From a virus (lineage: Duplodnaviria; Caudoviricetes): 64,000 nt of DNA. The stretch is from IMG/VR virus record IMGVR_UViG_3300044695_004869; one strand, written 5' to 3'. Both the position numbers and the translations under genes were made by a program. Below, in pieces: positions 30,403-64,000 of this stretch (positions are counted from its first letter, which is position 1; each line of letters begins with the position of its first letter). The notes below the pieces were generated by a model. The model made no database searches. It was not told the origin of the DNA and worked only from the letters and a program-made list of their open reading frames with translations.

Positions 30403-33400
30403 TTAACAAGTAGGACAATTACCTAATAAACTTACTGTGACTCCCACAGGAACTGAAGGTACTGTTGATGAACAAACACTTGTTGCTCCACCCGCTGAAA
30501 TAATCAAAGGAGAAATTTCAGTCACACAACATGGTGTAAATGTTATTGAAACTTCTTTTGTTAGATTAGTATTAACAATTCTATAGAAAAAACAATTTGG
30601 GGTTGGGGTTGGTGTTTTTGTTGGGGTTGGTGTTTTTGTTTTAGTAATTGTAGGTGTTACCGTTTTAGTTGGGGTTGGAGTTGGAGTTTTGGTTTTTGTT
30701 GGTGTTACTGTTTTAGTGATTGTTGGCGTTGGGGTTGGAGTTTTAGTTTTTGTTGGAGTTGGAGTTGGGGTTGAGCAAGGTAATTCAGATAAACAACTAT
30801 TGCAAGAAGTGAATGTGGTCCCGTTCCAAACTAAATTTGTCGTACCAACTGTAACAGAGATAACTTGATAACAGTTAAAGTCAGTACCAACTATTACACT
30901 ACCTATTACAAAATTTATTGGTAAATTAACATATCTTATTTGTTTTGTACAACAATTTTCTACCACATATGTAAATAATTGTGGTTCAGGTGTTCTAGTT
31001 GGTGTTGGAGTTTTAGTTGGAGTAGCAGTTGGCGTTAACGCCGGTATTACATCAAAATTACATATTGAAGCGTATACCACACTTAATCCATTACCTGGTC
31101 CTGATATTGTTAATACGTTGAACGGACCATTTGCGGTTATTGTAAATAAACCGCTACCAATTCCAAAAGTACTATTACAAAATGGGTTTGAGATATCCTG
31201 ACTTGCGGTTATAACGTTATTGTTTATGGTTGCACAACAATACTCACATGAAGTAATTATTGGATTTCCACTATCTGTGGTTATTATAAATGAATCAGTA
31301 CTGGTTGGTGTATATCTATAATTAACCAATCTGATTGTTACATTATTAACAGGGTTATTAAATGTTAAAGTATATGAAAATGCGTTTTGACCAAAAAATA
31401 ATGGTGGGTTTAAAGTTATTTGTGATGAACCACAAGAAGGTACAAAAGTTATCGGAAGTCCTTGACTAACAAAACCTGTGTGTGTTTCACTTATTGTAAC
31501 ACCATCAATAATAACGGGTAATTCTAATGGTAAGGCATTATCTATTGGACAACAACCACCTATAGGGTTTGTTGAAGTTGGGGTTGGGGTCACCGTTTGT
31601 GTTGGTGTTTGTGTTGGTCTTGCGGTTGAAGAATTAGTTGGGGTAACAGTTGGTGTTGTTGTGTTAGTTGGTGTTGATGTTGGTGTTGGTGGTGGATCTG
31701 TTGGAGTATTAGTAGGTGTTGGAGTAAATGTTGGTGTGTTAGTAACTGTTGCGGTTGGTGTTGGAGTTGTACCACTAGGTGTAAATGAACTTATGGAACA
31801 TTCCGGTATGGATGAAGCTCCGGCAACTTGAATTAATGGTATTGTGTTTATAGGTGTTAAACTATAAGGGAATGTTAAGGAAATTGAATACAATTGGGCT
31901 GAATTTGAATCAACAACATAAACACCATTTACATCACTATATAATCCAAAAGGAAATGGGAAAGGTAGAGAAATATCTACTTCGACTGCTCCTGTATTGA
32001 AATTATGTTGTGTGACCCAAGATAATGTACCTGTTGGGTTGTTATATGTCACAATTAATTTAGGTGAAACTCCGGGAATATATAAAATATCACCAGAAAC
32101 ATATCTATTAGAAACTAAAGGAAATAAAATTGTTAAAACCGGTGAGGCTAAATTTGTGACATCAACGGTGAAAAAATTAGCTGATGAACCTAAAGGAAAA
32201 GTAAATTGACTTATCAACACCGTGTTATCATTTATTACCCCTAATCCGGCTCCTGAGGTAAACGGTAATTGAGTTACCGTAGATCCGGTTGGTGAAATTG
32301 CAAATGGACATGGAGTATAATCAAAAATTCTTAAATTAATCCCACCATTTGTAAAAATTCTATTAGTTGTATGTGCAATGTCCGCACCACCACCAGCAAA
32401 AGGTGGGAAATATTGAGTTAAATTAGTTATTGTATTTGTATTTTGATTATATGATACAATAGATCCGAGACCTGATAAACTACCATTAAATAAAATACTA
32501 CAATCTTCCAAACAAGGTAATCCTCCGGTTGGAGTTACCGTTGGGGTTGATGTGTTAGTGGGAGTATTGGTTGGGGTTGGTGGTGGATCTGTTGGGGTAA
32601 CGGTTGGGGTTGGGGTTGTTGTTGGTGTGGCTTGAGGTACAGTAAATTCTAATGTTATACAATCAGGACTTTGACCCGAATCAAAAGACCTAATTTGTAA
32701 AAAGTTTCCAAGATAAGAAGTCGTGTATGGTGGTGAAGTTTGTATTGTATAAAGTTCACCAGTAAAAGATCCAATATAAAAAAAATTATTCCATTGGAAA
32801 AATGATTGAATGTAAGTTGTTATTGGAATTGGTATGTCTATTTGTGGTTGCCAAGACCCACCAACATAATGAAATTGTGTCACATATTTTTGATTTGTTG
32901 TTGTGTCAAATCCTATGGTAATCATTTTACCGTTGTTATTCATAACAACTTCACTTATTTGTCTATCATTTGATAAATTACTTAATTGATATAATATAGT
33001 TTTGGACCAAATAGGCCCACTAATATCCACCAATACAATATCAAAACCTGTGTTACCGAATCCCATAGATACTAATAAATTAGGGTTAACGATATTTGTT
33101 ATTGGATCTCTATACACACATAATGCACCCGCCAACCAACCTAATGATGGGATAGCGCTTGGAGATGCGATGTCTCTAGACCATACCGCACTCCAAGGGT
33201 TTAATGTAATATCCCATTCTCTTATTCCTTGAGAAGCGTCTTGACATATCCATAATTTTGTTGATGTATTTGTCATGCTTTGCCCAAGTACATTTAAGGA
33301 TTGGGGTAAATTAAGAAATGTTGTTGTATTTAAGGATGGGTTATACACATATAAACCAACACTTGTTGGTTGAGAGGTATCCAACCTTGTCATTATTAGA

Positions 33401-35421
33401 GGAAGACAATCCACATTAACAAATTCTGATGTTGGAGTCGGGGTTGGTGTTGGTGTTGGAGTTGGAGTTACACATGGATTACAAAATACGAATAAATCAC
33501 AAGTGTTTGTACAAGAATTATAAACGTAACCATCAGGACAAGAATATCCGGTTTCAAGATAATCACCATTTTCATTCTGAACTACATTTGATTGTGGTAC
33601 ACCACTCGATGTAAAAATAATATTCAAGTCATTTAATGTTGTTGCATTTACTAAATCAGATAAGGTATTGTCGTAAATTTCACAACCAAAAGCGGCTTGT
33701 CCCCCGTCATTCCAACCATATAGTTCAACCACATGATCCCCCGCATTTAATGTGATAGGGTAAACATTCCATCTTGTGAAAGGGTAATTAGCACCATACC
33801 AAGATGAAGTTGCTAATTTTGTATTCACAATAACATTACCATCCAAAACTAATTTAAAATGATTATCTGCGGCTACACCTATGTAATAAGTTTTTGTTTC
33901 TGATATGTTTATACAAGTACTAAATCCAAGCCACGTATTCAAAGGAATGTATGATGGTGAACTTGTCCAAATACCACATCTATTTAATGGTCCTGATGAT
34001 GTTGAAGATGTTGTATTTTTCCAAAGATTTGGTGTATTAATTACCGTATATAAACCATCGGTAATTGATGTTACGAAACCATTGATTGTGTAGTTTGGGT
34101 TGTACACATAAGTACCAAACCCCGAATAACTACTATATGGTCTTGGAATTAAATCATATTGTGATGTTGGTGGTGTCGATTCAATAGATGATATTGTATA
34201 ACAAGTTGTAGCATTATATGCACTATACGATGGCCCACACTGAACTTCACAATCTAATTCACAAATTGGAGTTGTTGGAGTCATAGTTGGTGTTGGAGTT
34301 GATGTTGGTGCAGGTTGTATTGAATCGCTACATATATCAACAATTGTACCCGCTTCACTACCAGGACCTGTTATGGTTAGTGTGGTAAAAGGTGAAGAGT
34401 TTGAGATTGTAAATGTTCCTCCACCATTTTGAGGATCTGGTGAACCTGATGGACAATATGTTGCGGTAACCACATTTCCATTTATTGTGGCACAACAATA
34501 ATCACAAGAAGATAAAACAGGATTTCCCGTGTTTGTTGTAAACGTAAACGATTCCGCACCTAAAGTACTAATACTATAATTAATTAATCTTATGACTATA
34601 TTATTTACAGGAGAACTAAAGTTTAATATGTATGTAAAAGATGTATTGGAAATTGAACTACCTAAAAACACTGTATTTGTTGCCGATCCCGGTGGTGTCA
34701 TACACCAAGCAAGAACTCCACCGAATGTTGTTGATAGAACATCACCAAAACCAGATGCGGTTATTGTTACACCATTTACAATTGTTGAAGATCCCAAACC
34801 AGGTAAGGAACTAACTGATTCACATATTGGACAAACAGGAGTGGGGGTTGGAGTTGGTGGGATCTGAGTTGGTGTTGCTGTTGGGGTTGTAATAAAAGTT
34901 GTTGTGGGTGTTGGTGTGGGGGTAACATCACCACAAGGGTAATCTATTGTACATGGACCACAACCACTTAATTGTTCCGTTAATTTATCGAATTCTATTA
35001 CTAATGTTGGGGTAGATGCCGAAGTGGCTATGGTAACACACCCCGTAAATTGTGCCGACTCAACATAATATGAATTACTTGATAATGGAAAAAAGTCAGG
35101 TGGAACATCTGTTATTTGAATTATTTCATTTGAATTACAACAAGATACAAATATTGCAACTCCGGGTAATGGACAGGCTCCTATTGATACATCAAAAATT
35201 GCATCTGAACATACGTTGTTCGGGTCGTAAATATACCAACCTGTGTCAGGAAATGAGTCACTATCCGTTGATCTTGGTTCACCACAGAAAATACCTTCCC
35301 AACCAATCATTTCCCAATAACCATTTATATTCCATCTAATTGTTAATGGAGTTGCATTATCGTATGCAACCCAAGAAGGTTTTGAGTTATAAAAACCAAT
35401 AAAATTAAAATCATAATTCAT
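30403..35421 (-). CDS. Large modular mucin-like surface protein (Pro/Thr stalks, Cys-rich modules, PA14-like domain, duplicated beta-domains)
   Basis: Repeated TPTPT linkers; YYIGVAADNHFKLVLDG...ITLNAGDHVVEL (PA14-like); duplicated CxYCCATINxNV domain. Confidence 0.65.
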   Translation of the reverse strand: MNYDFNFIGFYNSKPSWVAYDNATPLTIRWNINGYWEMIGWEGIFCGEPRSTDSDSFPDTGWYIYDPNNVCSDAIFDVSIGACPLPGVAIFVSCCNSNEIIQITDVPPDFFPLSSNSYYVESAQFTGCVTIATSASTPTLVIEFDKLTEQLSGCGPCTIDYPCGDVTPTPTPTTTFITTPTATPTQIPPTPTPTPVCPICESVSSLPGLGSSTIVNGVTITASGFGDVLSTTFGGVLAWCMTPPGSATNTVFLGSSISNTSFTYILNFSSPVNNIVIRLINYSISTLGAESFTFTTNTGNPVLSSCDYCCATINGNVVTATYCPSGSPDPQNGGGTFTISNSSPFTTLTITGPGSEAGTIVDICSDSIQPAPTSTPTPTMTPTTPICELDCEVQCGPSYSAYNATTCYTISSIESTPPTSQYDLIPRPYSSYSGFGTYVYNPNYTINGFVTSITDGLYTVINTPNLWKNTTSSTSSGPLNRCGIWTSSPSYIPLNTWLGFSTCINISETKTYYIGVAADNHFKLVLDGNVIVNTKLATSSWYGANYPFTRWNVYPITLNAGDHVVELYGWNDGGQAAFGCEIYDNTLSDLVNATTLNDLNIIFTSSGVPQSNVVQNENGDYLETGYSCPDGYVYNSCTNTCDLFVFCNPCVTPTPTPTPTPTPTSEFVNVDCLPLIMTRLDTSQPTSVGLYVYNPSLNTTTFLNLPQSLNVLGQSMTNTSTKLWICQDASQGIREWDITLNPWSAVWSRDIASPSAIPSLGWLAGALCVYRDPITNIVNPNLLVSMGFGNTGFDIVLVDISGPIWSKTILYQLSNLSNDRQISEVVMNNNGKMITIGFDTTTNQKYVTQFHYVGGSWQPQIDIPIPITTYIQSFFQWNNFFYIGSFTGELYTIQTSPPYTTSYLGNFLQIRSFDSGQSPDCITLEFTVPQATPTTTPTPTVTPTDPPPTPTNTPTNTSTPTVTPTGGLPCLEDCSILFNGSLSGLGSIVSYNQNTNTITNLTQYFPPFAGGGADIAHTTNRIFTNGGINLRIFDYTPCPFAISPTGSTVTQLPFTSGAGLGVINDNTVLISQFTFPLGSSANFFTVDVTNLASPVLTILFPLVSNRYVSGDILYIPGVSPKLIVTYNNPTGTLSWVTQHNFNTGAVEVDISLPFPFPFGLYSDVNGVYVVDSNSAQLYSISLTFPYSLTPINTIPLIQVAGASSIPECSISSFTPSGTTPTPTATVTNTPTFTPTPTNTPTDPPPTPTSTPTNTTTPTVTPTNSSTARPTQTPTQTVTPTPTSTNPIGGCCPIDNALPLELPVIIDGVTISETHTGFVSQGLPITFVPSCGSSQITLNPPLFFGQNAFSYTLTFNNPVNNVTIRLVNYRYTPTSTDSFIITTDSGNPIITSCEYCCATINNNVITASQDISNPFCNSTFGIGSGLFTITANGPFNVLTISGPGNGLSVVYASICNFDVIPALTPTATPTKTPTPTRTPEPQLFTYVVENCCTKQIRYVNLPINFVIGSVIVGTDFNCYQVISVTVGTTNLVWNGTTFTSCNSCLSELPCSTPTPTPTKTKTPTPTPTITKTVTPTKTKTPTPTPTKTVTPTITKTKTPTPTKTPTPTPNCFFYRIVNTNLTKEVSITFTPCCVTEISPLIISAGGATSVCSSTVPSVPVGVTVSLLGNCPTC

Positions 35422-35447: not shown

Positions 35448-37352
35448 TTAACTACTAATAAATGTAAGTAAATTACTCGTTATCTGTCCACCACCAGCGG
35501 CTGGTGTTAAAAATGCGGTAATGGATATTCTATATGTATGACCCGGAGGACAAGGACCACCATATCCATTTGGATTAACCGCGCTCGGGAACCAATCCGT
35601 CTGTTGTATTGTTGCTCCTGCTTGCCATCCAGTAGGTCCGCTTGCCCAAAAATTTATCGATGTTTGAGTAGGTGGTATGTTTGTAACTTTCCAATGTACA
35701 AAATAACCATTTGGACTTGTTCCTCCGGCGTTTATATCTTCCATTAATAAACTATAACTAATAACATCGTTTGTTGTAAAATTAGTTAAAGACCAACCTA
35801 ACCCAACACTATAGTTTAGTCCACCACAAAGAGGGTGTTTAACCACAGAACTTAATGTTTGCCCATTTAAGAATTGAGGACTCTGAACCAATATGCTTTT
35901 CGCTCCAAAATTTGCACCTCCACATGGGGTTTGTGTCATTGTAGTCCCTATCTGATAATAATAATTATTTTGACAGGTTGTTGCGGTTGTGGGGTTCAAA
36001 CCGGGTAAAGTTATTGTATTGATTGATTGTGGATTAACCATAGGTGCATTTCCTCCCATCCACGCTTTTATACCTAATTCATTTGCAACGTCATCAATAC
36101 GACAAGCATAACCCAACCAATTATTGTAAGTTCCCGTAAATGTAAATACATTTTGAGGTCCACTTGTTACAGGATATGAAGGAATACTATTTCCCGCAAA
36201 AACTAAACCAATTACTTTAAAGTTTGGTGATGCTTGAGTACCAAAATTTGCGATAAGAATTGACCCCGAATCTCCCGCCGCACATGGCCATAAACAATGA
36301 GGTTGGGCGGGATTTCCACTTGGTTTATAAAATGCAATCAATCTGTTATCGAAAGATGCGTTTGTACCATACTGATTACCTCCAGAAATATGCCATTTAT
36401 ATCCACCAACCGTTTGGAATTGGTTTATCCCAAATAATCTTAACTCACAACCTGGTGTTCCTAAACCTTTTGGACCTGTTGATCTTCCAGTACTATATAA
36501 TTGTGGGTTAGTGACCATCAAATTATCAATTTCTGCTGTCGTTGCAAAAGGTAACGGAGAAGTCATCAAAGATTCAAATCCCGAAAATTTCCACGATTGA
36601 TTGAAATCTATTTTATTACAATCAATACTAACTAATGCTCCATCTACTCTGTTTTTGGGAACTAAAGAAGGTGAGGGGGACGAAATTCCGACGGTTAAGT
36701 TAATAGAACTATTTGGAACTAAAGGCACATATCTTACAACTTGACCATATTTTAAATTTGTTTGGAAACCGAATTCGCCTGGTTGACAAGAAAAATTGCT
36801 ATTTGGAAAAACTTCATTTGTTGTTGGGAAATTATTTCCTAAGAAAGCATTTAAATTTTGGTATTGGGCAGCAATTGAGTTACCAATAACAACGTGATTA
36901 TTAGTTAAACCAACCAATGCATTTGTATGAATGTCTTGAACTATCATCCCTAATGTTCCGACAGAATTACTTTGATTAACGGAAGTTATCGATATTCCAC
37001 CCTTTAGTGTTGCAAATGCGGATCTGTTTGTTGGTGCAGTCAAAATAAATGGTTCACAAATGGGTGGTGGGTTAGTAACGGGTGTTGTTCTACTACATTG
37101 TAATGCGTAAACCTCACCAACTTGTATTACATCAGTTTTAAGTGTTAAATTATCGTTTATATTTATTTCTGAAGGTAATATCTCATCTTCAGATAATTCT
37201 GATAATGGTTTTTTTTCTTTAACGGTAAAGGATATACAAATTTCACCAGTATATACACCGCCAGTTTGTTTGAAAGAATACCCAACACCAATATCGGATG
37301 GTGTTTTATCAGCCCATTCTTGAAGTTTTTTATTTATTTCATTTGTTATCAT
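35448..37352 (-). CDS. Trypsin-like serine protease with prodomain, fused to C-terminal PEBP (YbhB/YbcL-like) domain
   Basis: GTLG...LTNNHVV (His), VDGAL (Asp), AGDSGS (Ser); C-terminal LLMEDIN...FVHWKVTNIP...GYGGPCPPGHTYRI. Confidence 0.8.
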   Translation of the reverse strand: MITNEINKKLQEWADKTPSDIGVGYSFKQTGGVYTGEICISFTVKEKKPLSELSEDEILPSEININDNLTLKTDVIQVGEVYALQCSRTTPVTNPPPICEPFILTAPTNRSAFATLKGGISITSVNQSNSVGTLGMIVQDIHTNALVGLTNNHVVIGNSIAAQYQNLNAFLGNNFPTTNEVFPNSNFSCQPGEFGFQTNLKYGQVVRYVPLVPNSSINLTVGISSPSPSLVPKNRVDGALVSIDCNKIDFNQSWKFSGFESLMTSPLPFATTAEIDNLMVTNPQLYSTGRSTGPKGLGTPGCELRLFGINQFQTVGGYKWHISGGNQYGTNASFDNRLIAFYKPSGNPAQPHCLWPCAAGDSGSILIANFGTQASPNFKVIGLVFAGNSIPSYPVTSGPQNVFTFTGTYNNWLGYACRIDDVANELGIKAWMGGNAPMVNPQSINTITLPGLNPTTATTCQNNYYYQIGTTMTQTPCGGANFGAKSILVQSPQFLNGQTLSSVVKHPLCGGLNYSVGLGWSLTNFTTNDVISYSLLMEDINAGGTSPNGYFVHWKVTNIPPTQTSINFWASGPTGWQAGATIQQTDWFPSAVNPNGYGGPCPPGHTYRISITAFLTPAAGGGQITSNLLTFISS

Positions 37353-37362: not shown

Positions 37363-38991
37363 TTAACAACTTATATTAGGTATTATGGAGAATGAATCAA
37401 ATTGAACTATAACACCATTATTATCGGTTTTAACCATATAAAGATTTTGTAAATTATTACATAAACCCGCTTGGGTTGGATCGTAAATAAACCTCGTATT
37501 TGTTTGGGGTGGATATATACCTGATCCGTTAGGAGTAAAACCATAAATTGTTACACCTAACGCCGGTGGACTATAACATCTTTTGGTCATTCCTTGAACT
37601 TGGGATGTAACGTTACAATTAGTCAAGAAACAAGCGTAAGTGTTAAGTTGACATTTTATTAAACTATCACTTATAGAAGATGGGTTTGTTATAACAACAT
37701 TAGAACCATTACAAACAAGATTATAACCTGTTTGAAATGAGAATGGATTTGGTATAAGATTTCCTCTTGTTGGTGTTGGTGTTGGAGTTTTAGTTGGTGT
37801 TGGAGTTGGTAATGGGTTATTACAATCATATACCTCAAATGAAACAAATGACGTAAATGGACCAACCGCAGCATTAATAGGTGTTCGAGTTGGAGTTTTA
37901 GTTGGTGTTGGTGTTGGAGTTTTAGTTGGGGTTGGAGTTAATCCAAATGTTTTACTTGGTGTTGGTGTTGGTGTTTTGGTTGGTGTTGTTGTTTTAGTTG
38001 GTGTATTTGTAGGAGTTGGAGATAAACCAGGAGTAGGTGTTGGAGTTTTAGTAGGGGTTGGTGTTAATCCTTGTGTTGGGGTTGGAGTTTGTGTTGGTGT
38101 TTGTGTTGGTGTTTTTGTTGGAGTTATAGTATTTGTAGGAGTTATTGTTGGAGTATTTGTTGGAGTTGGTGTTGGAGCAACCGGATCACAAGTACAAACA
38201 CTTTGAAGATATGTGGTACCATTACCTGTAAGTTTAGTAACAGATAATGCACATAATGTTGATGCAAAATCAGTTGAAGCACTGATTGTTGTTGTATTTC
38301 CAGAACAATCTAAATAACTAAATGTTGATCCTGTCACATCTGTACCACCATAATAATACCAAGTATTACAACAAGGTATTGGTGTAGAACTTGGGGTTAA
38401 AGTTGGAGTTGGAGTTGGAGTTGATGTTTGTACAAAAATTTCCATACAAAATTCATCAATAGGTACAGGTTCTGGCGCAAATGGACTCGGAGCAGGAGTT
38501 CTTGTTGGTGTAGGAGTTGGTGTGTCTTGAGGACAACAACATTCGGTTGTTGTCGTTGTTGTTGTTGGACAAACATTATTACAACATGGGAATTCTATTA
38601 GGTAACAATCTTCATATGGTAAATCTTCCGCAATAAAACTTTCTTGCACATTAATAAATAATTGTTCTCTTATTGGTAATATTAAAACACCTTGAGAATT
38701 TCTTAATAAAAATTGAGCCTCATATCTTGCGGTTTTATTTGTATCTTGTGGTTTAAATTGATAATATATATAATATTCAGGTTCAGCGTTTGGATCCATA
38801 AGTTCTTTCTCAACAAATCCAGCAGGGCTTGTTGAGATTTTAGGGATCCCGGTTTCAACATTTGTCATTGAAAAGAAGATTGCGGACTCTTCGATCATAT
38901 CCATGAAAGAATTGTAATCGCTTCTACCGTCTTTTACAACCTGTAATTTTAATATAGGGAGAGTAGCATTCTTTTTAATGAAAAATTCCAT
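37363..38991 (-). CDS. BppU-like N-terminal anchor plus Thr/Pro mucin-like stalks and Cys-rich modules
   Basis: [16 protein letters not shown]...[19 protein letters not shown]; long TPTKTPTPT runs. Confidence 0.55.
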
Positions 38992-39029
38992 TTATAGTTT
39001 TTACTATAAATATGCGGAACTACTAAATA

Positions 39030-40703
39030 TTAACATTCTTTTCTTAAAGAACCATCATAATGATCAAATCTATTATGTTCTGTCGGTGTTGATAATAAAA
39101 TACCTGATTTAATATTACCTTTTACCGTTTCTTGATAACAATGACTCATTAATGTTTGTTCATATGGGTTTTGGAATTTTGTTTTTAAATAACAATTATA
39201 ATTTCCTTCCTTAGACATTAATATTGGCCAATTAGATAAATAAATTTCTCCCGAAGCGTAAGGTACATTTCTATAAGATTTTATATGTTTAAATTCTAAA
39301 TTTGGTGAATTTGGGTCTAATCCCTGTTGAGGTAATTTAGGGTTATTTGGCCAATGAGATTCTCTAAATTCTTGAGGTACATTGTACCAAGCCCATTGTT
39401 TGTCGTGGGAACCATAAAACTCACTGAAGTTTAATTTTAAAAAATCAAAATTTTCATTTTTTAGAATGTCTAATGTTATGTCAAATATATTTTTAATATA
39501 TCTATTAAAACCATTTCTACAAGTTAAATCACCACCATTGTAAAAAAACATATCATCTTCAAAAAAATAATAATACCCTAAATCTTTTTGTTCATCAAAA
39601 TGTTCGGCAATAAATTGTCTACCACCAGTTATTCCGATGTTATCCTTTTTTATATGTTCAAACCCATATTCATTACATAATTTAATGTATTCATCTGTAG
39701 TTGTTAAATCGGTAGAATTATTTAAAAGAAATTTTTTAGTTTCATTAATAAATTTAGGGTCGTATTCTAACATTGAATTAATTAGAGTTCTAAATTGATT
39801 TGGAGAATTAAATGTAATAACATATACAGCAATATCACTACCCGTGTTTTTTACTTTAGGTTTTCTATTTTTATTTAAAATAACAACATCATCATTCTTG
39901 ACATCCTCAAAGAATTTATATAATAAACCATTACTTTCTATTTGACAATAATCAATTAATTGTGGGTTTTGATATAATAATATTGTGAATAAACTTTCTT
40001 CCGTACCCATATATCCTTTATTTAAAGTTTCAATAAGTAGGTTATAATATAAGACATTTATTTCGGCTATTGTATGTTTATCACCACCAAAAAAACCTCC
40101 TCTCGCAACAATATTTGGTTCAGAATTAGTTAATCTTTTCATTTCATTATATTCAAAACCATGTACTTCATTTTCCGCATCATATGGAAAACAAACAAAT
40201 AAAAAATTATTTGTTAATATTTTTATTTTATCCATTACTTTATCGTGAGTAAAGTAACCCCAATGAACAGTATTAGTTATTCCCGCATCTATCCAATAAA
40301 GTGAATCGGAATTAAATTTATCTAATATCCTTGCATCATTTAACAAAAACATTTTAGACATAACTAAAGGATTATACATTTCTAATCTTGCCTGTGTGGA
40401 ATCTTTTAACCATCCCGAAAGAGTATACCAACTTTCGTTTAATCTAATTTTTTGTATTTTTTCGTAATATTCATTATTTTTGAACCAATCAACACTTCTA
40501 ACTATAAATTGAGTATTATCTTCATTTCTAAATGTTTTGGCATACTCAATAACTTCTTGGTCACCAAAGATTATTAAATTACCATCATATTGTAAAAGGT
40601 CTTTGAATTTTTCTAAATATGTGTCAAAAGATCTTGACCATCCTTCAGTTAAATTACCTCTTCCGATATTCCATAAACCGGTTACTAATGTTGTGTTTTT
40701 CAT
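39030..40703 (-). CDS. HtrL/YibB-like domain fused to a GT-A (GT2-like) glycosyltransferase domain
   Basis: TLVTGLWNIGRG, YNPLVMSKMFLL, YWIDAG, GGFFGG, GTEESLFT; second domain AVYVITFNSP...YFFEDDMF. Confidence 0.6.
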   Translation of the reverse strand: MKNTTLVTGLWNIGRGNLTEGWSRSFDTYLEKFKDLLQYDGNLIIFGDQEVIEYAKTFRNEDNTQFIVRSVDWFKNNEYYEKIQKIRLNESWYTLSGWLKDSTQARLEMYNPLVMSKMFLLNDARILDKFNSDSLYWIDAGITNTVHWGYFTHDKVMDKIKILTNNFLFVCFPYDAENEVHGFEYNEMKRLTNSEPNIVARGGFFGGDKHTIAEINVLYYNLLIETLNKGYMGTEESLFTILLYQNPQLIDYCQIESNGLLYKFFEDVKNDDVVILNKNRKPKVKNTGSDIAVYVITFNSPNQFRTLINSMLEYDPKFINETKKFLLNNSTDLTTTDEYIKLCNEYGFEHIKKDNIGITGGRQFIAEHFDEQKDLGYYYFFEDDMFFYNGGDLTCRNGFNRYIKNIFDITLDILKNENFDFLKLNFSEFYGSHDKQWAWYNVPQEFRESHWPNNPKLPQQGLDPNSPNLEFKHIKSYRNVPYASGEIYLSNWPILMSKEGNYNCYLKTKFQNPYEQTLMSHCYQETVKGNIKSGILLSTPTEHNRFDHYDGSLRKEC

Positions 40704-50477: not shown

Positions 50478-50515
50478 ATGTTAAGTATAAAGTATGTTGT
50501 TAAAAAATAAATAAG

Positions 50516-51862: not shown

Positions 51863-52117
51863 TTAATTTTCATAACCATATAAAGTCCCGTTATCAATTA
51901 TTTTCCATATCGAATGAAAATTACTTGTTGGTCTCTCAACTAATAATTCATCAACATAATCCCACCAAGAATTAAGTTGTTGTTCTGTTAATGTTGAAGA
52001 GCATTGACCTCTATAATTAACACCATATGGTTGTTCTTGATCTAATTGAATAGAACTGTTACTACTATTGAATTGTATTATTTGATCATCTGTTGTTTTA
52101 AATTCTACCTGTCTCAT
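51863..52117 (-). CDS. Hypothetical protein
   Basis: 84-aa ORF overlapping the stop of the upstream gene (ATGA). Confidence 0.45.
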   Translation of the reverse strand: MRQVEFKTTDDQIIQFNSSNSSIQLDQEQPYGVNYRGQCSSTLTEQQLNSWWDYVDELLVERPTSNFHSIWKIIDNGTLYGYEN

Positions 52118-53829
52118 TTTACCATAATCATATAATGTTGAGTTCCCCCATAAGTTAATCCGTTTGAGACATATGTTCCAAAGTCATACACTCCACCGGT
52201 TGTTGTTTCTCCACCACACCAAGCACCTGAATAATAAAAGGCGGCACCACAATAAACAGTAGCCATTCCACCCCATCCTCCTCCATACCCTGCATAACCA
52301 CAACAATCTCTCATATAGTAAATATTATTATTTGTACCTGTTGTTGTATATCCAACTGCCCCTTGCATACCTGGATAATCCGTTGTACCGTAAACAGCAG
52401 TGTTACTTTTTATTGTGGAATTAGTGTATGATTGTTGAGTATCGGAACCAAAAAATGTTGAGTAGTTTATGGAAGATACTTTATAAATAAACGGACCCCA
52501 ACTATTATCCACGTTAGTTCTTTGGTTACCAAAAATGAAAGAGGTAAACGTTGCATTTCCGTCCCATATTTCTCCCCATCCTAATTGATATGCCTTAGAA
52601 AAATCATTTATATTACCTACCGTACCACCTTTCCAACCCCAGTTTTCACCATCTAAGTTTACTGATGGGGCACTTCTAGCGATTAGCGTCCACCCTCCAC
52701 CATCAGTTGTCATATCACAATGAACTTGATATGGTGATGAGGTCGGTCCACCAGGATAAACCCAATACAATCCGTCATATCCCGCAAGTTGTGGAAATGT
52801 GTCTATAATATCTTTACAAGTTTTACAAGTATTGAAAAATGATGGCCCACTATTTCTTAATGTTCGTGTGATTTCTGTTTGAGATAAAGCTCGGTTGTAA
52901 ATTGCCCATCTATATATGTTACCTTTCCACATATTATCACCTCTACCTAAATACTGAGTACCTCCATTAGTATCATAATATGGAGTTCCTCCAGCAAAAG
53001 ATCCTGCTGATATTGCATCGTGATAATATATTTGAGCTTGGGGGGTAATTGTTATAACCCCTAAATGATATCTTGTGGTACTTACAGTTACGGCATTAGA
53101 TACTCCACCGGCATAATTAGAACTAAAATGATAATATAATTGTGATGGGTTATTTGTTGGACTATATAAATAAAAATTAAAACTTCTACCAGATCCCGCA
53201 ACTCCAATCATACACCTAAATTGACTATTAAAATCTGTAAGAGCATCTATCTTATACCAAACCGCAATTGTTATACCCGCGGACCAAGTTATATTATTAA
53301 AATTATTGGAGTTCGCAATTGAAATTAAATCATCTGTACCATCAAAAGAAAATGTCCCCGTGGTACTATTCCAAGACGTACCATTAGACAAAGTACCATT
53401 TCCAACACTACCACTATTCATTAATGGGTAAAGTGTGGATCCATTTTTAGGGTATGATGAAACACAACTACTGTCGACTAAATATACTAATCCATTAGTG
53501 ATAACCGCATCATAATCTTTATCTAGTAAGAATTTATCTGTTTGAGTAATATAATAATTTAAACATTCATTCGCTGTTGTATAATTTGTACCTGCAATTT
53601 TGTTAGTTAAATCAATTAATTGAGTGTCGTTCGATGGTACATATATTGATGGACCATTGGATGTCTTATTAAGATATATTGTATATCCACCACGAGGAGG
53701 TGAGATACCATTCCAATAACCTGAGGTACTTGTAGGTCCTTTTCCTACATCATTCGTACCAATCCAAAAGTCACCCTTTTTAAGAGCCAATGTTTGGGCC
53801 GTCGCACTATATTTTATTGAATTTGGCAT
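52114..53829 (-). CDS. LamG-like plus fibrinogen-C/intelectin-like domain protein
   Basis: LamG: FSFDGTDD...WKGNIYRWAIYNRALSQTEI; fibrinogen-like: CKDI...DGLYWVYP...VHCDMTTDGGGWTLI. Confidence 0.75.
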   Translation of the reverse strand: MPNSIKYSATAQTLALKKGDFWIGTNDVGKGPTSTSGYWNGISPPRGGYTIYLNKTSNGPSIYVPSNDTQLIDLTNKIAGTNYTTANECLNYYITQTDKFLLDKDYDAVITNGLVYLVDSSCVSSYPKNGSTLYPLMNSGSVGNGTLSNGTSWNSTTGTFSFDGTDDLISIANSNNFNNITWSAGITIAVWYKIDALTDFNSQFRCMIGVAGSGRSFNFYLYSPTNNPSQLYYHFSSNYAGGVSNAVTVSTTRYHLGVITITPQAQIYYHDAISAGSFAGGTPYYDTNGGTQYLGRGDNMWKGNIYRWAIYNRALSQTEITRTLRNSGPSFFNTCKTCKDIIDTFPQLAGYDGLYWVYPGGPTSSPYQVHCDMTTDGGGWTLIARSAPSVNLDGENWGWKGGTVGNINDFSKAYQLGWGEIWDGNATFTSFIFGNQRTNVDNSWGPFIYKVSSINYSTFFGSDTQQSYTNSTIKSNTAVYGTTDYPGMQGAVGYTTTGTNNNIYYMRDCCGYAGYGGGWGGMATVYCGAAFYYSGAWCGGETTTGGVYDFGTYVSNGLTYGGTQHYMIMVK

Positions 53830-53886
53830 TTAATCTTTATTTTATAAATACTTTAACTTTTAAACTTGGTTGTTATTTTTAACGAT

Positions 53887-56814
53887 ATGGAAAAGATTAA
53901 ATTATTATACTTAACACCCCACCTATCAACAGGGGGTATGCCTCAATTCGTCTTAAAAAGAATTCAATCATTACAAGAATATAAAGATCAGATTGAGATA
54001 TTTTTAGTTGAATACTCTCAATTCAGTTCAACATATGTTGTACAAAGAGATCAAATTATAAAATTATTAGGAAATAATCACTTCTTCACGTTAGGCGGAA
54101 CTGATGAGGTTGACAAAAAAAATATGTTGATTGACATCTTAAAAAACAATAAGATTGATATTCTTCATTCAGAAGAAATGATTGATGGATTTGAATCGTT
54201 TAATAAAGTTCCAATTGATCTACTAAACCAAATTTACTCTAACGATAGAACTTGGAGAATTATTGAGACGTGTCATAATATTTGGTTTAACCCACTATCA
54301 GATAAAAAATTACATCCTGACGCTTATTCTCTTGTAACACCATATCATATGGAGGTTTCTTTTAAAGATACCCCCCCAATGAAATTTCTATCAACATATC
54401 CATATGAAAACAAAGTAACACCTATCTTAGCGGAAAATGAAATCTATGGTGATTTCAAACAATTACCTCTTATACATAAAATAAAAGTTAGAGAAGAACT
54501 TGGTTTGGATATGTTTAAAACTCACGTATTAAATGTGGGATTATGGACAAGTGGTAAAAATCAAGGTGAGGGTGTTGAGGTCGCAAGAACTTTGGTTGAA
54601 TCTAATCCTGATATTCAATTCCATTTTATTGGAAATCAAGCACCAAACTTTGAGGACTATTGGGGTCCGATTATGAAGAACTTACCATCAAATGTTAAAG
54701 TATGGGGTGAAAGAAATGATGTTGATAAATTTATGCAAGCCTCCGATGTTTTAATGTTTAATTCAACTTGGGAATGTAATCCTTTGGTTATTAGAGAATC
54801 TATTAACTATGGTATGAAAATATTAACAAGAAATCTACCACAATATATGGGAATGTTTGATAAATACATTAAACCAATTAGTGGTGAGATCGAAGACATT
54901 TCAAAACAATTAGTTAAACTTATTAATAATGAACACACATATGACATACCAAACGATACTGATTTTGGTGATAACCTTTTGTCAATGTATCGTATTGTTC
55001 TAAATGAACAAATAAGACATAACGAACCAATTAAAAATGATTACATTTATACACAACATTATGTGTGTCAACCATTTTTTGAATTTAGAGGTCAAAGTGA
55101 AAATAAGTTTTTAATTAAAATGTTTGATGGTGATGACAATCTTATTTATAGTAATACGTTATCAATTAATAGTTGGATTAAATTAAATAGAGAATATTAT
55201 ACAGATTGGAGAACAGAGGTGTGGGAAAATGATGAATTGATTTATGAAAATAAAATTAACTTAGAAGGAAAAAGAGTTTATATATCGTTCGGATCAAAAT
55301 CATTAGGGGATACAATGGCTTGGATTCCTTATGTTGAGGAATTTAGATTAAAACATAAATGCGAATTAATTGTCTCGACATTTATGAACCAACTATTTGT
55401 TGATCAATATCCAAATATTGAATTTGTTGATCCGGGAAATGTTGTTATGAATATTCATGCCCAATATAGAATAGGGTGGTTCTATAATGAAGATGGTTCC
55501 GTAAATTATAATATGACACCAAATGATTATAAAAAACAACCATTACAAAAAACCGCAACAGATATATTAGGTCTTGAATATAATGAGATAAAACCAAAAC
55601 TTAAATTACCAAATGTTCCAAAAAAGAAAAAAGTCGGTATTGGATTTCACTCAACGGCGCAGTCAAAATATTGGAATAACCCAAATGGATGGCAAGAAGT
55701 TATTGATTATCTTATAAATTTAGGATACGAATGTATGATTTATTCTAAAGAGGGGGATGGGTATATGAATAACCATTACCCAAAAGGAGTAACTATTTTT
55801 GAAGGGGGTGACCTACAAAAAGTAATTAATGATCTTGTTACTTGCGAATTCTTTATTGGTTTGGGATCAGGGTTATCTTGGTTAGCGTGGGCTTGTGAAT
55901 TACCGATAGTTTTAATATCAGGATTTAGTGAGAAATGGGCAGAAACAACTTTAGACACATATAGAGTTATTAATGAAAATGTTTGTCACGGATGTTTTAA
56001 TTCGGAAAAATTAGATGCGGGAGATTGGAATTGGTGTCCATTACATAAAGGTACCAATAGAATGTTTGAATGTACAAAACAAATTACATCTCAAATGGTT
56101 ATTTCTGAAATAAATAAAATTCTTAAAAAAGAAAATCTTCCTGTTTTTGATTGGGGTTGGATGAATACAGATATCATTAATGCCCAATATCATAAAGAAG
56201 TTATGTACAATGAAATTTTTATTGATAAGGTTTATGAAAGATTTTTTGAGGTTGAGGAAGGTGATATTGTATTTGATATTGGATCAAGTGTTGGTCCTTT
56301 TACAAAATCAATTTTACATAAAAAACCAAAGCACGTATTCTGTATTGAACCAAGTACCTCCGAATTTAAAACTTTAGTTAAAAACACCTTAGGTTATCCT
56401 GTAACACAAATAAATAAAGGTATTGGTTTTACAAACGGGATTGTTGAATCTAATGAACTTTTTGGTGGGGAAACACATATGGAATCTATAAATTTTAAAA
56501 AACTATTGGATCTTTATGGAATTGAAAAAATTGATTTCTTAAAAACAGATTGTGAAAGTGGTGAATATGAAATCTTTAGAGATGAAAACGTTGAATTCAT
56601 TAAGAATAATGTTAAAAAGATTTCAGGTGAGTGGCACTTAAGAACGGATGAAAGTAGAGAAAAATTCAGACATTTTAGAGATAATGTATTACCTAACTTT
56701 GATAATTACCAAATATTCTCTGTTGATAATATTGATATCAAATGGGAATTGTGGACCGAAAGATTTCTTGAATGGTATGACGAAATAATTATCTATATTG
56801 ATAATAGAAAATAA
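53887..56814 (+). CDS. Tri-domain enzyme: GT4-like + TibC/Aah-like protein O-glycosyltransferase + FkbM methyltransferase
   Basis: GT4: VLNVGLW...KNQ, FMQASDV..FNSTWECNPLVIRE; TibC-like: SKSLGDTMAW, STAQSKYWNN, FIGLGSGLSWLAW, CHGC/WCP/FECTK; FkbM: VFDIGSSVG, IDFLKTDCESGEY. ATG 53887 preferred. Confidence 0.75.
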   Translation: MEKIKLLYLTPHLSTGGMPQFVLKRIQSLQEYKDQIEIFLVEYSQFSSTYVVQRDQIIKLLGNNHFFTLGGTDEVDKKNMLIDILKNNKIDILHSEEMIDGFESFNKVPIDLLNQIYSNDRTWRIIETCHNIWFNPLSDKKLHPDAYSLVTPYHMEVSFKDTPPMKFLSTYPYENKVTPILAENEIYGDFKQLPLIHKIKVREELGLDMFKTHVLNVGLWTSGKNQGEGVEVARTLVESNPDIQFHFIGNQAPNFEDYWGPIMKNLPSNVKVWGERNDVDKFMQASDVLMFNSTWECNPLVIRESINYGMKILTRNLPQYMGMFDKYIKPISGEIEDISKQLVKLINNEHTYDIPNDTDFGDNLLSMYRIVLNEQIRHNEPIKNDYIYTQHYVCQPFFEFRGQSENKFLIKMFDGDDNLIYSNTLSINSWIKLNREYYTDWRTEVWENDELIYENKINLEGKRVYISFGSKSLGDTMAWIPYVEEFRLKHKCELIVSTFMNQLFVDQYPNIEFVDPGNVVMNIHAQYRIGWFYNEDGSVNYNMTPNDYKKQPLQKTATDILGLEYNEIKPKLKLPNVPKKKKVGIGFHSTAQSKYWNNPNGWQEVIDYLINLGYECMIYSKEGDGYMNNHYPKGVTIFEGGDLQKVINDLVTCEFFIGLGSGLSWLAWACELPIVLISGFSEKWAETTLDTYRVINENVCHGCFNSEKLDAGDWNWCPLHKGTNRMFECTKQITSQMVISEINKILKKENLPVFDWGWMNTDIINAQYHKEVMYNEIFIDKVYERFFEVEEGDIVFDIGSSVGPFTKSILHKKPKHVFCIEPSTSEFKTLVKNTLGYPVTQINKGIGFTNGIVESNELFGGETHMESINFKKLLDLYGIEKIDFLKTDCESGEYEIFRDENVEFIKNNVKKISGEWHLRTDESREKFRHFRDNVLPNFDNYQIFSVDNIDIKWELWTERFLEWYDEIIIYIDNRK

Positions 56815-56849: not shown

Positions 56850-57548
56850 TTAACAAGGACCTTGATATGCTAGTGTAGAGGATCCGTCCCAATAGTAACA
56901 ATCAGTTCCGTCACTATAAAAGGCATCTCTCGCCGGAATTTTACAAAGATTATCATCAAATATTCCATCGGCATTTGCCAAATTACACGTACCACCACAA
57001 GGTAAGTGTAGGTAATATACTGCCGTTGTATTACAAGAACAAGCTTCCCCACATTCCGGACCATAACATAATTCTCTTTCACAACAAACTTCAACACAAG
57101 GTGTTGGAGTCGGAGTTGGTGTTGGCGTTGGACTTGATCCGGCCGATGTTGCCGTTGGTGTTGCCGTTGGAGCCGAGGTATTTGATGGAGTAACGGGTGG
57201 TGTTGATGCCGGTGTTGCCGGAGGAGTTCTTGTTGGTGTAGGTGTCATTGTTGGTGTACTAGGTGGTGTTTTTGTTGGGGTCGTCGTTGGTGTTACAGTT
57301 CTTGTTGGTGTATTAGTTGGTGTATTAGTCGGCGTATTAGGTGGTGTTCTTGTTGGAGTTGCGGTTCTTGTTGGTGTCATAGTTTGTGTTGGTACAGGAC
57401 TTCCTCCCGGTGTTCTTGTTGGTGTCACTGTTGGTGTTGGTGAACAGAAATCAATGTCATCCATTTTACTTGCATTTGCTTTAAGTATATCATCAACTTT
57501 GCTGATATTAGCACATAAAACGTCATTAACTTTACTTACTGTTGGCAT
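56850..57548 (-). CDS. Thr/Pro mucin-like protein with Cys-rich C-terminus
   Basis: Short N-terminal xxKVxxV repeat, about 115-aa TPT stalk, Cys-rich tail. Confidence 0.65.
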
Positions 57549-57558: not shown

Positions 57559-60500
57559 TTATACTAACTCAATCCAATCTTGTGAAGGGTTAAAGTAAAC
57601 TTCGTCAGTTGCAATTGCGTATCCGCAAACTCTCACAATATCGGCGGTTCCCGTTGGTTGAGTGGATGTTAGAGTATCTCCTGCGGTCGATAGGTAAACC
57701 GGAGCACCAATAGTAAATGACCAAGACGTATTTTTAAAGTAACCTCTTACTAACATACCTCTGTTATAAGCCACTGCATTAGTACATATACCAAGTAAGT
57801 TTCTTGATGCAGATGCGCTATCCGCATCTGCCGACAACCAAGTGTTGGATGATGATAAATATCTAACTTGTCCAACGGCGGGACTAAATCCTACATCACC
57901 AATAGATAATAATTCACCATAATGGTCACCATTTGACGCTAATCTTGATACAGGATCAGTGTTGATTGTATAATATCCTGATGTTCTTGTAACTTGGAAG
58001 TGATCTGATATTGTTGCACTTCCCGTAACATTTAGTAGGTTTGTTATTCCATTAAATGTTAAGTTAGGTTCTGAGTTTGCCGAATTTGCGGTTCCATTAG
58101 CGGTTAATATGTTATTATCTGTTGTTGGAGAAATTGAAGTAAATCCTGTACCTGATGTACCATTTGTTCCGGTAGTACCATTGGTACCTGATGTACCGTT
58201 TGTTCCTGAAGTTCCATTAGTTCCGTTTGTTCCATTTGTACCATTTGTTCCTGAAGTTCCATTAGTTCCGTTTGTTCCGTTGGTCCCATTTGTTCCTGAA
58301 GTTCCATTAGTACCGTTGGTTCCATTAGTTCCATTTGTACCTGATGTCCCATTAGTACCGTTCGTACCATTTGTTCCATTAGTTCCATTTGTACCTGATG
58401 TCCCATTAGTACCGTTCGTACCATTTGTTCCATTAGTTCCATTTGTACCTGATGTCCCATTAGTACCGTTCGTACCATTTGTTCCATTAGTTCCATTTGT
58501 ACCTGATGTCCCATTAGTACCGTTGGTTCCATTAGTTCCATTTGTACCTGATGTCCCATTAGTACCGTTGGTTCCATTAGTTCCATTTGTACCTGATGTC
58601 CCATTAGTACCATTAGTACCTGATGTTCCGGCAGCTCCGCTTACACCAGATGTCCCATCAGTTCCTGATGTACCATTTGTTCCGTTAGTCCCTGATGTTC
58701 CGTTTGTTCCACTAGTACCGTTAGTCCCTGACGTTCCATTGGTTCCGTTAGTTCCCGATGTTCCATCGGTTCCGCTAGTACCATCGGTTCCACTTGTTCC
58801 GTTTGTACCATTCGTTCCTGAAGTACCATTCGTTCCTGAAGTTCCATTAGTACCGTTGGTTCCTGATGTTCCGTTAGTACCGTTGGTTCCTGATGTTCCG
58901 TTAGTACCGTTGGTTCCTGATGTTCCGTTAGTACCGCTAGTTCCATTAGTACCATTGGTTCCTGAAGTTCCATTTGTTCCACTTGTTCCGTTTGTACCTG
59001 ACGTTCCATTAGTACCATTGGTTCCTGAAGTTCCATTAGTACCATTGGTTCCTGATGTTCCGTTAGTTCCTGAAGTTCCATTTGTGCCGTTTGTACCAGA
59101 AGTACCGTTGGTTCCATTTGTTCCTGAAGTTCCATTAGTACCGTTGGTTCCTGATGTTCCATTTGTACCGTTGGTACCATTTGTACCGCTAGTTCCGTTA
59201 GTACCTGATGTACCATTTGTTCCGCTAGTACCATTCGTTCCATTTGTTCCTGAAGTACCGTTAGTACCCGAAGTACCATTTGTGCCCGAAGTTCCATTTG
59301 TTCCGTTAGTACCTGAAGTCCCATTGGTTCCATTTGTTCCTGAAGTTCCGTTTGTACCACTTGAACCATTCGTTCCGTTAGTACCTGAGGTTCCATTGGT
59401 TCCATTTGTACCATTTGTCCCCGAAGTCCCGTTTGTACCACTTGATCCGTTTGTTCCTGAAGTTCCATTTGTTCCATTCGTACCGCTAGTTCCATTTGTT
59501 CCTGACGTTCCATTTGTACCGTTTGTTCCTGACGTTCCATTTGTTCCGCTAGTTCCATTAGTACCATTTGTTCCCGAAGTTCCATTTGTTCCATTCGTAC
59601 CGCTAGTTCCATTTGTTCCTGACGTTCCATTTGTACCGTTTGTTCCTGACGTTCCATTTGTTCCGCTAGTTCCATTAGTACCATTTGTTCCCGAAGTTCC
59701 GTTAGTTCCGCTAGTACCATTTGTTCCATTCGTACCTGAAGTACCATTAGTGCCATTAGTCCCATTCGTACCCGAAGTTCCATTTGTTCCTGACGTTCCA
59801 TTCGTACCATTTGTTCCTGAAGTCCCATTAGTTCCACTTGAACCATTTGTTCCATTCGTACCTGAAGTACCATTAGTACCATTAGTCCCATTCGTACCCG
59901 AAGTTCCATTTGTTCCTGACGTTCCATTCGTACCATTTGTTCCTGACGTTCCATTCGTACCATTTGTTCCTGAAGTCCCGTTAGTTCCAGATGTTCCGTT
60001 CGTACCTGAAGTCCCGTTAGTTCCATTTGTTCCACTAGTACCATTCGTACCTGATGTACCATTAGTACCGTTGGTACCACTTGAACCATTTGTTCCTGAG
60101 GTACCATTAGTCCCATTTAAACCACTTACACCTGAAGTTCCGTTAGTTCCAGATGTTCCATTTGTTCCGCTAGCACCATTTGTCCCGTTGGTCCCTGAAG
60201 TTCCATTCGTACCCGATGTACCATTAGTTCCGCTAGTACCGTTCGTACCATTAGTTCCGCTAGTACCGTTCGTTCCGTTAGTTCCGTTAGTACCGGATGT
60301 TCCATTAGTACCTGAAGTTCCATTAGTACCATTTGTTCCTGATGTCCCATTTGTTCCTGATGTTCCATTTGTCCCGTTAGTACCCGAAGTTCCATTAGTT
60401 CCATTAGTTCCTGAAGTTCCATTCGTTCCGCTAGTTCCATTTGTACCTGATGTTCCATTCGTTCCGTTTGTACCTGAAGTTCCATTTGTACCTGATGACC

Positions 60501-63999: not shown

Positions 64000-64000
64000 A

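Follow-up and report, generated by a model that had tools for sequence, protein, structure and literature searches.

A candidate two-module system for glycosylating repeat-rich fibre and appendage proteins in a contractile-tailed lake phage

The 64,000-nucleotide (nt) stretch of viral DNA analyzed here (IMG/VR record IMGVR_UViG_3300044695_004869, Duplodnaviria; Caudoviricetes; hereafter the window) contains, between positions 30403 and 64000, ten glycosyltransferase or methyltransferase genes with approximately 13 catalytic domains. The same region encodes four proteins with Thr/Pro tracts, three lectin-fold proteins, and one collagen-like protein of the (GTN/GTS)n type. On the strength of family membership and gene order, we consider it probable that these genes specify a two-module cytoplasmic system by which the phage would glycosylate its own fibre and appendage proteins before or during assembly. 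An initial annotation of this DNA had described about ten glycosyltransferase and methyltransferase genes among structural-looking repeat proteins. That description is borne out: the ten genes have profile, fold, or language-model matches of differing strength, and the Thr/Pro and Gly-Thr-Asn/Ser repeat proteins are real.

A contractile-tailed phage is indicated by a tail sheath gene (15657–18968), a baseplate hub gene (13283–14047), a helicase, and a family-B DNA polymerase (PolB; 27526–30309). The DNA originates from an uncultured jumbo phage in lake water, and the transferase cluster recurs nearly unchanged in 20 lake-water metagenomes. Relatives with complete genomes in IMG/VR span 318–322 kb, one of them with terminal repeats, and three complete relatives (G001–G003) served as proxies for the window's own genome. 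The closest PolB relatives belong to Salinibacter and Nostoc/Anabaena phages at approximately 23–27% identity, and no near-identical DNA was found among GenBank phages.

In the first proposed module, a GT60-family enzyme would place the first N-acetylhexosamine, by analogy N-acetylglucosamine (GlcNAc), on Thr of the Thr/Pro linker tracts, and the enzymes encoded between it and an HtrL-like gene would extend and methylate the chain. The 415-amino acid (aa) GT60 protein (45344–46591, minus strand) matches PF11397 with 247.3 bits against a cut-off of 21 (E = 4e-73); this family call of the initial annotation, like its TibC/Aah call discussed below, thus lies above curated thresholds. The translation contains QIDSHMRF, a DxH-type metal motif whose DSH can be read, by analogy with GT27 and GT60 enzymes, as the metal-binding motif of a GT-A fold. 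Protist members of the GT60 family are polypeptide α-GlcNAc transferases, among them Gnt1 and Gnt2 of Dictyostelium and the mucin enzyme of Trypanosoma cruzi. The window enzyme resembles them in its DSH motif and soluble character, and the window tracts TPTNTI and PTVTPT resemble the mucin-like PTVT-type spacers on which the protist enzymes act. It differs in that it is phage-encoded, would work in the bacterial cytoplasm, and heads an operon of further transferases. By analogy with the protist enzymes, the phage enzyme may transfer GlcNAc to polypeptide Thr, Ser, or hydroxyproline, as the neighbourhood of its gene suggests.

The open reading frame (ORF) that ends 56 nt upstream of the GT60 gene encodes a mucin-like protein of 599 aa (46648–48447, minus strand) composed of 30% Thr and 15% Pro. 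Relatives of the GT60 gene occur on 199 viral contigs, and the comparison centred on it used 80 related loci, with the upstream gene counted over 71 loci and the cassette over 67. Of these 71 loci, 45 have a Thr/Pro-rich gene as the immediate upstream neighbour of GT60, at a median gap of 62 nt, and in those that remain this neighbour is Thr-rich or collagen-like. The same immediate adjacency is found in a second, more distant lineage (L182/L184), in which GT60 is 39% identical. In a 322-kb relative, no more than approximately nine ORFs are Thr/Pro-rich, which favours a link between the two genes. Within the window, the first 30 kb contain no ORF with Thr/Pro tracts, as against the four in the region.

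Downstream of GT60, the minus-strand operon continues with a series of enzyme genes whose assignments differ in strength. The product of 44493–45347 (284 aa) shows a sub-threshold match to the C-terminal motif of GT11 (19.4 bits against a cut-off of 23.9), and two homologues score 15.4 and 17.2 bits with the same motif. The GT11 identity, and with it the α-1,2-fucose of the initial annotation, was not adopted for this gene, since the score lies under the gathering cut-off and covers the C-terminal motif only. The 226-aa product of 43816–44496 is a putative viral glycosyltransferase, as its language-model neighbours are viral clusters annotated "putative glycosyltransferase", with GT8 as a lead and no Pfam match. 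It is followed by a GT-A retaining-type glycosyltransferase like GT6/GT8 (43053–43814, 253 aa), for which the predicted fold (pLDDT 82) matches BoGT6a (4cj8; E = 8e-6, TM 0.5) and both Asp residues of the DxD motif, TDGDW, are invariant among six homologues. A weak match to Methyltransf_23 (1.3e-5; 25.5 bits against a cut-off of 27) suggests an S-adenosylmethionine-dependent methyltransferase at 42514–43050 (178 aa). Language-model searches provide leads for the next two genes, HtrL/YibB-like for 41586–42509 (307 aa) and, with no Pfam match, fucosyltransferase-like (NodZ/FUT8/O-FucT clan) for 40714–41589 (291 aa). The last enzyme gene of the series (39030–40703, 557 aa) encodes an HtrL/YibB-like putative glycosyltransferase (PF09612, 6.8e-19), the C-terminal half of which is unannotated and gave no match in a PDB sequence search.

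Comparison across relatives reveals a conserved frame consisting of a fibre-like gene, GT60, a variable stretch, the 557-aa HtrL-like gene, a gene with an Ig-like N-domain, and PolB. The 557-aa gene forms the conserved distal flank and is present at 74 of the 80 loci; the 307-aa HtrL-like gene is present at 20 and the 291-aa fucosyltransferase-like gene at four. Between GT60 and the distal flank, the stretch measures 1.0–7.0 kb and comprises at least 55 protein clusters over the 67 loci, and the members sampled belong to GT2, GT7C, GT10 (a fucosyltransferase), GT25, and GT34 (the last together with a methyltransferase), besides an epimerase. In the window, G+C falls to 27–30% across the cassette. 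This stretch is organized like a variable glycan locus, yet without genes of the undecaprenyl phosphate (Und-P) pathway. As its inner genes change from one phage to the next, the outer glycan would vary like a serotype.

In the second proposed module, a TibC/Aah-like domain would place a sugar on Ser/Thr of a proline-free, collagen-like (Gly-Thr-Ser/Asn)n fibre, and a fused GT4 domain would extend this sugar and a fused FkbM domain methylate it. Given ADP-heptose from the host, the sugar would be a heptose; failing that, it would be a different one. The three domains were recognized by profile and PDB matches in a single plus-strand gene (53887–56814), with GT4 at approximately residues 208–357, TibC/Aah at 412–753, and FkbM at approximately 800–940; these residue numbers are counted from a TTG at 53866, and the ATG at 53887 is the likelier start. 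The TibC/Aah domain (residues 413–752) scores 287.4 bits against TIGR04414, for which the curated equivalog cut-off is 200, and matches PDB 4rb4 with E = 7e-65. Published positions of Phe265, Val266, and Cys339/342/358/370 (PMC4358343) served to confirm the TibC numbering. In the resulting alignment, the catalytic Asp110 is kept as the Asp in SLGDTMAW, the four iron-finger Cys residues (339, 342, 358, and 370) all align with Cys, and three of the four sugar-binding residues (Thr226, Lys230, and Trp305) are kept. The stereoselectivity residue Pro300 is replaced by Gly, and the thumb-tip residues Phe265/Val266, considered in connection with the ring-shaped dodecamer of TibC-type enzymes, by Tyr/Met. 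By sequence, the domain is a member of the bacterial autotransporter heptosyltransferase (BAHT) family for which a different acceptor is proposed. The FkbM domain only just passes PF05050 with 27.5 bits (cut-off 22.7) and reaches 35.9 bits with TIGR01444, just below the cut-off of 37.7. Assignments to GT60, HtrL_YibB (557 aa), GT9, GT4, and TibC/Aah count as strong. In a 735-kb phage (L165; LR756501.1, 7179–13026), a homologue of the GT4 domain is encoded just upstream of the TibC-like gene, so that the GT4-TibC pairing exists also as separate genes.

The candidate acceptor of the second module is the product of a giant collagen-like gene, the 3' part of which (57559–64000, minus strand; 2146 aa) lies in the window and continues past its end. 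It contains 650 uninterrupted Gly-X-Y triplets, 433 of them GTN and 192 GTS, and among the tallied triplets no proline occurs. The repeat matches PF01391 (5.7e-28) and can be classed by sequence as an atypical member with a putative triple helix. A globular C-terminal domain follows, the last ~100 residues of which align with the C-domain of gp82 from the neck fibre of Anabaena phage A-1(L) (8keg; E = 3.5e-5). That domain forms a trimeric bead of the virion neck fibre gp82/gp81/gp80 (8KEG; PMC10966104). By PolB, too, A-1(L) belongs to the window's nearest relatives; its fibres differ in that they consist of strung beads and lack collagen repeats, and they are not reported to be glycosylated. 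N-glycosylation of the 434 N-G-T sequons was set aside, as no GT41/HMW1C-like enzyme appears among the profile matches.

Two further features of this gene were observed. Within window positions 57837–57861, it has an internal copy of the heptamer TATTTAT that precedes an in-frame TTG (57837) by 18 nt, and a start at this TTG would yield a 92-aa product corresponding to the gp82C-like end domain. Such an internal start is conceivable because A-1(L) has a separate bead protein, gp81, that resembles gp82C; the arrangement may also be due to chance. In addition, the collagen repeat holds four other long frames open across 58104–64000, the plus strand included (MELQEQ-type and VPLVPF-type, up to 1964 aa), which are repeat artefacts open to mis-annotation by ORF callers.

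Pairing of the TibC-like enzyme with Ser/Thr collagen genes extends well beyond the window. Relatives of the enzyme occur on 376 viral contigs, and among the best 80 loci (52–85% identical), a collagen-like ORF lies within 10 kb in 50, versus one of 80 GT60 loci of similar total length. The neighbouring collagen genes, up to 3092 aa, use GTS, GTN, or GSS triplets in nearly all cases, and at all loci but one, Ser/Thr is present in 76–100% of triplets and proline in at most 3%. Enzyme and collagen genes are arranged convergently at 0.1–4.5 kb, co-directionally with the collagen gene 109–131 nt downstream, or with the collagen gene upstream, so that the pairing does not reflect one frozen gene order. 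After dereplication at 70% identity, the pairing is retained in 9 of 12 TibC-like clusters. The co-occurrence check, which the initial annotation had named as a possible refutation, proved positive here as it did for GT60 and Thr/Pro genes (45 of 71). Of nine genomes from the lineage of the window, four have both the enzyme and collagen and four have neither; collagen occurs alone in one, and the enzyme alone in none. The cultured Microcystis phage Mel-JY01 encodes 149 GTS/GSS-type triplets 1.7 kb upstream of a TibC-FkbM fusion, and the 735-kb phage has a shorter GSS/GTS run near its TibC-like gene. An open-literature search found no paper joining the terms collagen-like, heptosyltransferase, and phage.

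In Mel-JY01 (L083; PP395634.1), the 149-triplet run lies in an unannotated 1016-aa open frame on the plus strand (2–3049). The record instead annotates two minus-strand ORFs (1–651 and 739–2298) on the same DNA, which are probably repeat-induced antisense frames. The collagen-like gene likely continues across the record ends.

The layout of the region places transferase genes within an array of structural-type genes. A co-directional minus-strand array runs from 53829 to 30403 according to the ORF maps; beyond it lie the plus-strand fusion gene and then a minus-strand pair, the 232-aa Thr/Pro gene (56850–57548) and the collagen-like gene, to both of which the three-enzyme fusion is convergent. 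In order of transcription from 53829, the array begins with a 571-aa protein with Laminin_G_3 and fibrinogen-C domain matches (52114–53829), an 84-aa ORF (51863–52117), and a 343-aa Laminin_G_3 lectin-fold protein (50809–51840; 8.9e-14, and phrog_8510 with 2.7e-13). A 92-aa ORF (50516–50794) follows, its homologue in G003 being 71% identical; its product is possibly a fibre chaperone. Next come a 312-aa GT9 glycosyltransferase (49539–50477; PF01075, 51 bits against a cut-off of 22, 1.7e-13) and a fibre-like 329-aa Laminin_G_3 lectin-fold protein (48521–49510; 1.2e-14) that matches phrog_8510, "virion structural protein". The 599-aa Thr/Pro protein then precedes the eight packed or overlapping enzyme genes (46591–39030), and the last genes encode a 542-aa Thr/Pro protein (37363–38991), a protease/PEBP protein (35448–37352), and a 1672-aa Thr/Pro protein (30403–35421).

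The heptamer TATTTAT occurs 46 times in the window, not above the chance expectation of 52.8; within 45 nt upstream of start codons, by comparison, it is found at 14 of 39 starts, where 1.6 are expected and the maximum in 2000 shuffles is 7. It heads the sheath gene and other tail genes, together with six genes of the region. On the minus strand, these copies lie at 39006–39012 (upstream of 37363–38991), 48462–48468 (upstream of 46648–48447), 49525–49531 (upstream of 48521–49510), 50507–50513 (upstream of the GT9 gene, 49539–50477), and 53844–53850 (upstream of 52114–53829), and 4 nt upstream of the 92-aa ORF (50516–50794). The motif looks like a shared late-type regulatory element. The initial annotation had it leading most of the glycosylation units, a claim that holds for these six genes and the tail genes and fails for the GT60 operon, the fusion, and two Thr/Pro genes (those for the 1672-aa and 232-aa proteins), none of which is preceded by it. 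Before the GT60 operon, its place is taken by the variant TATTTTAT.

Three of the Thr/Pro proteins are proposed as acceptors or appendages alongside the mucin-like one. The 1672-aa candidate combines seven Thr/Pro linker tracts with Cys-rich globular modules (T 16%, P 10%, C 3.4%), lacks an N-terminal signal peptide, its single hydrophobic stretch being internal, and gives a weak PA14 match and a match to phrog_15511. The 542-aa protein carries an Ig-like N-domain of ~130 aa, recognized by alignment and predicted fold, followed by Thr/Pro tracts and Cys-containing modules. This N-domain is 41–78% identical to aligned relatives, is present at 69 of the 80 related loci, and is predicted to fold as an Ig-like sandwich (pLDDT 85). 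The 232-aa protein, encoded directly downstream of the collagen-like gene, is both Thr/Pro-rich and Cys-rich (T 22%, P 17%, C 6%). Pfam and PHROGs searches with the Thr/Pro proteins gave no informative match among named families, only the unnamed phrog_15511.

Comparison with known systems suggests that the proposed system would be a variation on known phage virion glycosylation and not a new kind. Its description in the initial annotation as having no characterized equivalent in a Bacteroidota phage was overstated in view of XacN1 (2018), mycobacteriophages (2023), and a 2025 paper on aquatic phages (PMC12619734). The latter reports four core glycosyltransferase groups in large aquatic phages predicted to infect Bacteroidota and leaves their role open (PMC12619734). 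Purified virions of the cultured Xanthomonas jumbo phage XacN1 show at least two Schiff-positive bands after periodate-Schiff staining, for which its authors proposed phage-encoded glycosylation; they recognized two transferases only and left the glycoproteins without identification (PMC5852040). XacN1 shares with the window GT60 (ORF334, 49%), the 307-aa-type HtrL (ORF332, 33%), and the 557-aa-type HtrL (ORF330, 42%, full length) in the same order. It also encodes a GT9 enzyme and, next to its baseplate genes, a protein of 3313 aa whose C-terminal part has Thr/Pro linkers. It differs in having an unrelated backbone, the search with the window's PolB not having found XacN1 PolB, and another cassette, with a carbamoyltransferase; the XacN1 stretch examined contains neither a TibC-like gene nor a collagen gene. 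RAS14 and related contigs encode GT60 (45–49% identical) and homologues of the 307-aa and 557-aa proteins in the XacN1 order, with a different cassette between.

The second module recalls TibC/TibA and Aah/AIDA-I (PDB 4RAP/4RB4; PMC4358343), in which a soluble enzyme is likewise encoded beside a long, repetitive, rod-shaped, Ser-rich protein. The phage version differs in its fusion to GT4 and FkbM domains. No autotransporter is found in the window, where, as in relatives, the recurrent neighbour of the TibC-like gene is a Ser/Thr collagen-like gene. Among giant viruses, glycosylation of surface structures in the cytoplasm by several virus-encoded enzymes is known for the fibrils and collagen-like proteins of Mimivirus and for Vp54 of chloroviruses, and in BclA of the Bacillus exosporium the collagen-like repeat contains Thr residues that carry O-glycans. 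These cases differ in concerning eukaryotic viruses or a bacterial spore, other enzyme families, and proline-containing collagen repeats. In mycobacteriophages, phage transferases encoded beside structural genes reportedly (Freeman and colleagues, 2023) put O-glycans on virion proteins; capsid and tail-tube subunits are said to be modified there at their C-termini, and few transferases are said to suffice. The window differs in its enzyme families, its repeat-type proposed acceptors, and its hypervariable cassette.

The same families might be directed at other targets. Remodelling of host lipopolysaccharide (LPS), capsule, S-layer, or adhesins, for example against superinfection or progeny re-adsorption, with the position among fibre genes incidental, strikes us as unlikely. 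Such a role would fit the GT9, GT25, GT2, GT4, and HtrL/YibB families, which are typical of LPS and polysaccharide loci, as well as the conserved flanks and variable middle, which resemble O-antigen loci. The 312-aa GT9 protein moreover scores about equally against protein and LPS heptosyltransferase models (41 bits with TIGR04414 and 34 with LPS heptosyltransferase III, neither score coming near its cut-off). However, neither the window genes nor ten sampled cassette genes of relatives include a flippase, a polymerase, a Gtr-type gene, or the membrane-bound phosphoglycosyl transferase that would start such a pathway, and no membrane segments were found in the transferases, GT60 included; the cluster does not qualify as an Und-P-linked polysaccharide (O-antigen or capsule) locus. 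Functionally known GT60 and TibC/Aah members act on polypeptides, the genes lie inside a late-type structural array with an upstream motif common to both, and collagen genes come and go in step with the TibC-like gene. Protein targets outside the virion would draw on the same family evidence for protein-directed activity, the acceptors being host proteins or phage mucins and collagens that are freed at lysis and are adhesive or matrix-forming. This possibility, which we hold to be quite improbable, is also compatible with the tie of the Ig-domain fold match with generic Ig folds, with the context-based virion placement of the Thr/Pro proteins, and with the occurrence, in some relatives, of the conserved N-domain alone as a short protein beside PolB. 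It is countered by the homology of the collagen protein's end domain to a virion neck-fibre domain, by the match of lectin-fold neighbours to a "virion structural protein" family, by the upstream motif in common with the sheath and tail genes, and by the detection of the XacN1 glycoproteins in purified virions.

Hypermodification of phage DNA with sugars against restriction appears very improbable, even though phage glycosyltransferases often act in this way, an option also raised in the moraphage paper (PMC12619734). In its favour, the cluster lies 9–16 kb from PolB, with fewer genes between in some relatives. Against it, the PF00303 homologues in relatives (174–320 bits) seem to be ordinary thymidylate synthases and not hydroxymethylases, and co-occurrence with repeat-protein genes would be left without explanation. 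To our knowledge, no DNA sugar pathway is as large as this set of approximately 13 catalytic domains with its hypervariable cassette. A candidate DNA hydroxymethylase was sought in relatives and rejected, as only thymidylate-synthase-like matches were obtained.

For glycosylation of the phage's own fibres, gene content, family membership, conserved gene order, co-occurrence of enzyme and repeat genes, and homology of the fibre's end domain to a virion neck fibre are observed; the acceptor role of the repeat proteins, the identity of the sugars, and the placement of the products on the virion are inferred. Several observations weigh against that interpretation. The related loci derive mostly from one lineage, and counts are not independent. 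In about one third of relatives the gene upstream of GT60 is not a Thr/Pro gene, and Thr/Pro-rich ORFs are scattered at 7–14 per relative genome. Only immediate adjacency to GT60 is informative, therefore, and a statistic for Thr/Pro ORFs within 10 kb of GT60 was dropped as uninformative given these numbers. Two well-flanked TibC-like clusters have no nearby collagen gene, and the complete 200-kb genome G007 (contig of L080) has a GSQ/GSN/GIT collagen at 39.8–42.4 kb without a TibC-like gene. The known acceptors of TibC and Aah are beta-helical autotransporters, not collagen, and in the TibC-like domain the sugar-binding Arg286 is replaced by Val, with a Lys one position earlier. The "complete initiate-extend-cap pathway" of the initial annotation does not stand either: the window contains no nucleotide-sugar genes, and neither GmhA nor an RfaE-type heptose adenylyltransferase (RfaE domain II) scores above cut-off in the three complete relatives, so that the donor is perhaps host ADP-heptose or a different sugar. 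Assignment of the Thr/Pro proteins to the virion comes from context only, and for the Ig-like N-domain, considered as a BppU-type baseplate anchor, the top structural matches, phage baseplate BppU-type N-domains (Z 7.2–7.7), tie with antibody and generic Ig folds. Finally, none of the RNA runs searched for the region contain it.

Neither a glycan coat on the virion nor a Bacteroidota host, both part of the initial annotation, follows from the data. The coat, with the roles in shielding, mimicry, or buoyancy put forward there, may nonetheless be envisaged. We propose tentatively, and with some doubt, that the region is a serotype-like virion glycan locus with two acceptor codes, Thr/Pro read by GT60 and Ser/Thr collagen read by the TibC-like enzyme, and a rapidly exchanged extension cassette. 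If so, near-identical phages would show different outer glycans on fibres that maybe approach micrometre length, the coat would be under diversifying selection like bacterial O-antigens, and the module would be ancient and common to unrelated jumbo phages such as XacN1. Glycosylated virions are textbook knowledge for eukaryotic viruses; among phages, we know of only some mycobacteriophages and the stain-level hint for XacN1. Glycosylation of the phage's own fibres would mean that abundant freshwater phages build mucin- and collagen-like glycoproteins with the enzyme families of protists and of pathogenic E. coli adhesins, and vary the glycan by a cassette system. It would bear on particle resistance to proteases and grazers, on surface sticking, and on phage–host recognition, as well as on the role of phage glycosyltransferases that the moraphage paper leaves open (PMC12619734), and it would offer compact, soluble enzyme-acceptor pairs for glyco-engineering.

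Some minor observations concern individual genes. The four Thr/Pro proteins are unusually rich in Cys (3.4–6%), with small Cys modules between linkers like beads on a string, and the motif CCATING occurs twice in the 1672-aa protein. The 634-aa protein encoded inside the fibre gene array at 35448–37352 (minus strand) has a protease-like N-terminal part (phrog_20754 "protease", 2.7e-14) with a GDSGS motif and a C-terminal PEBP domain (PF01161, 7.6e-12). In G001 (C1:5332–7607), the thymidylate-synthase homologue is found in three separate matches across 2.3 kb, a pattern pointing to an insertion, for instance of an intron, intein, or homing endonuclease gene.

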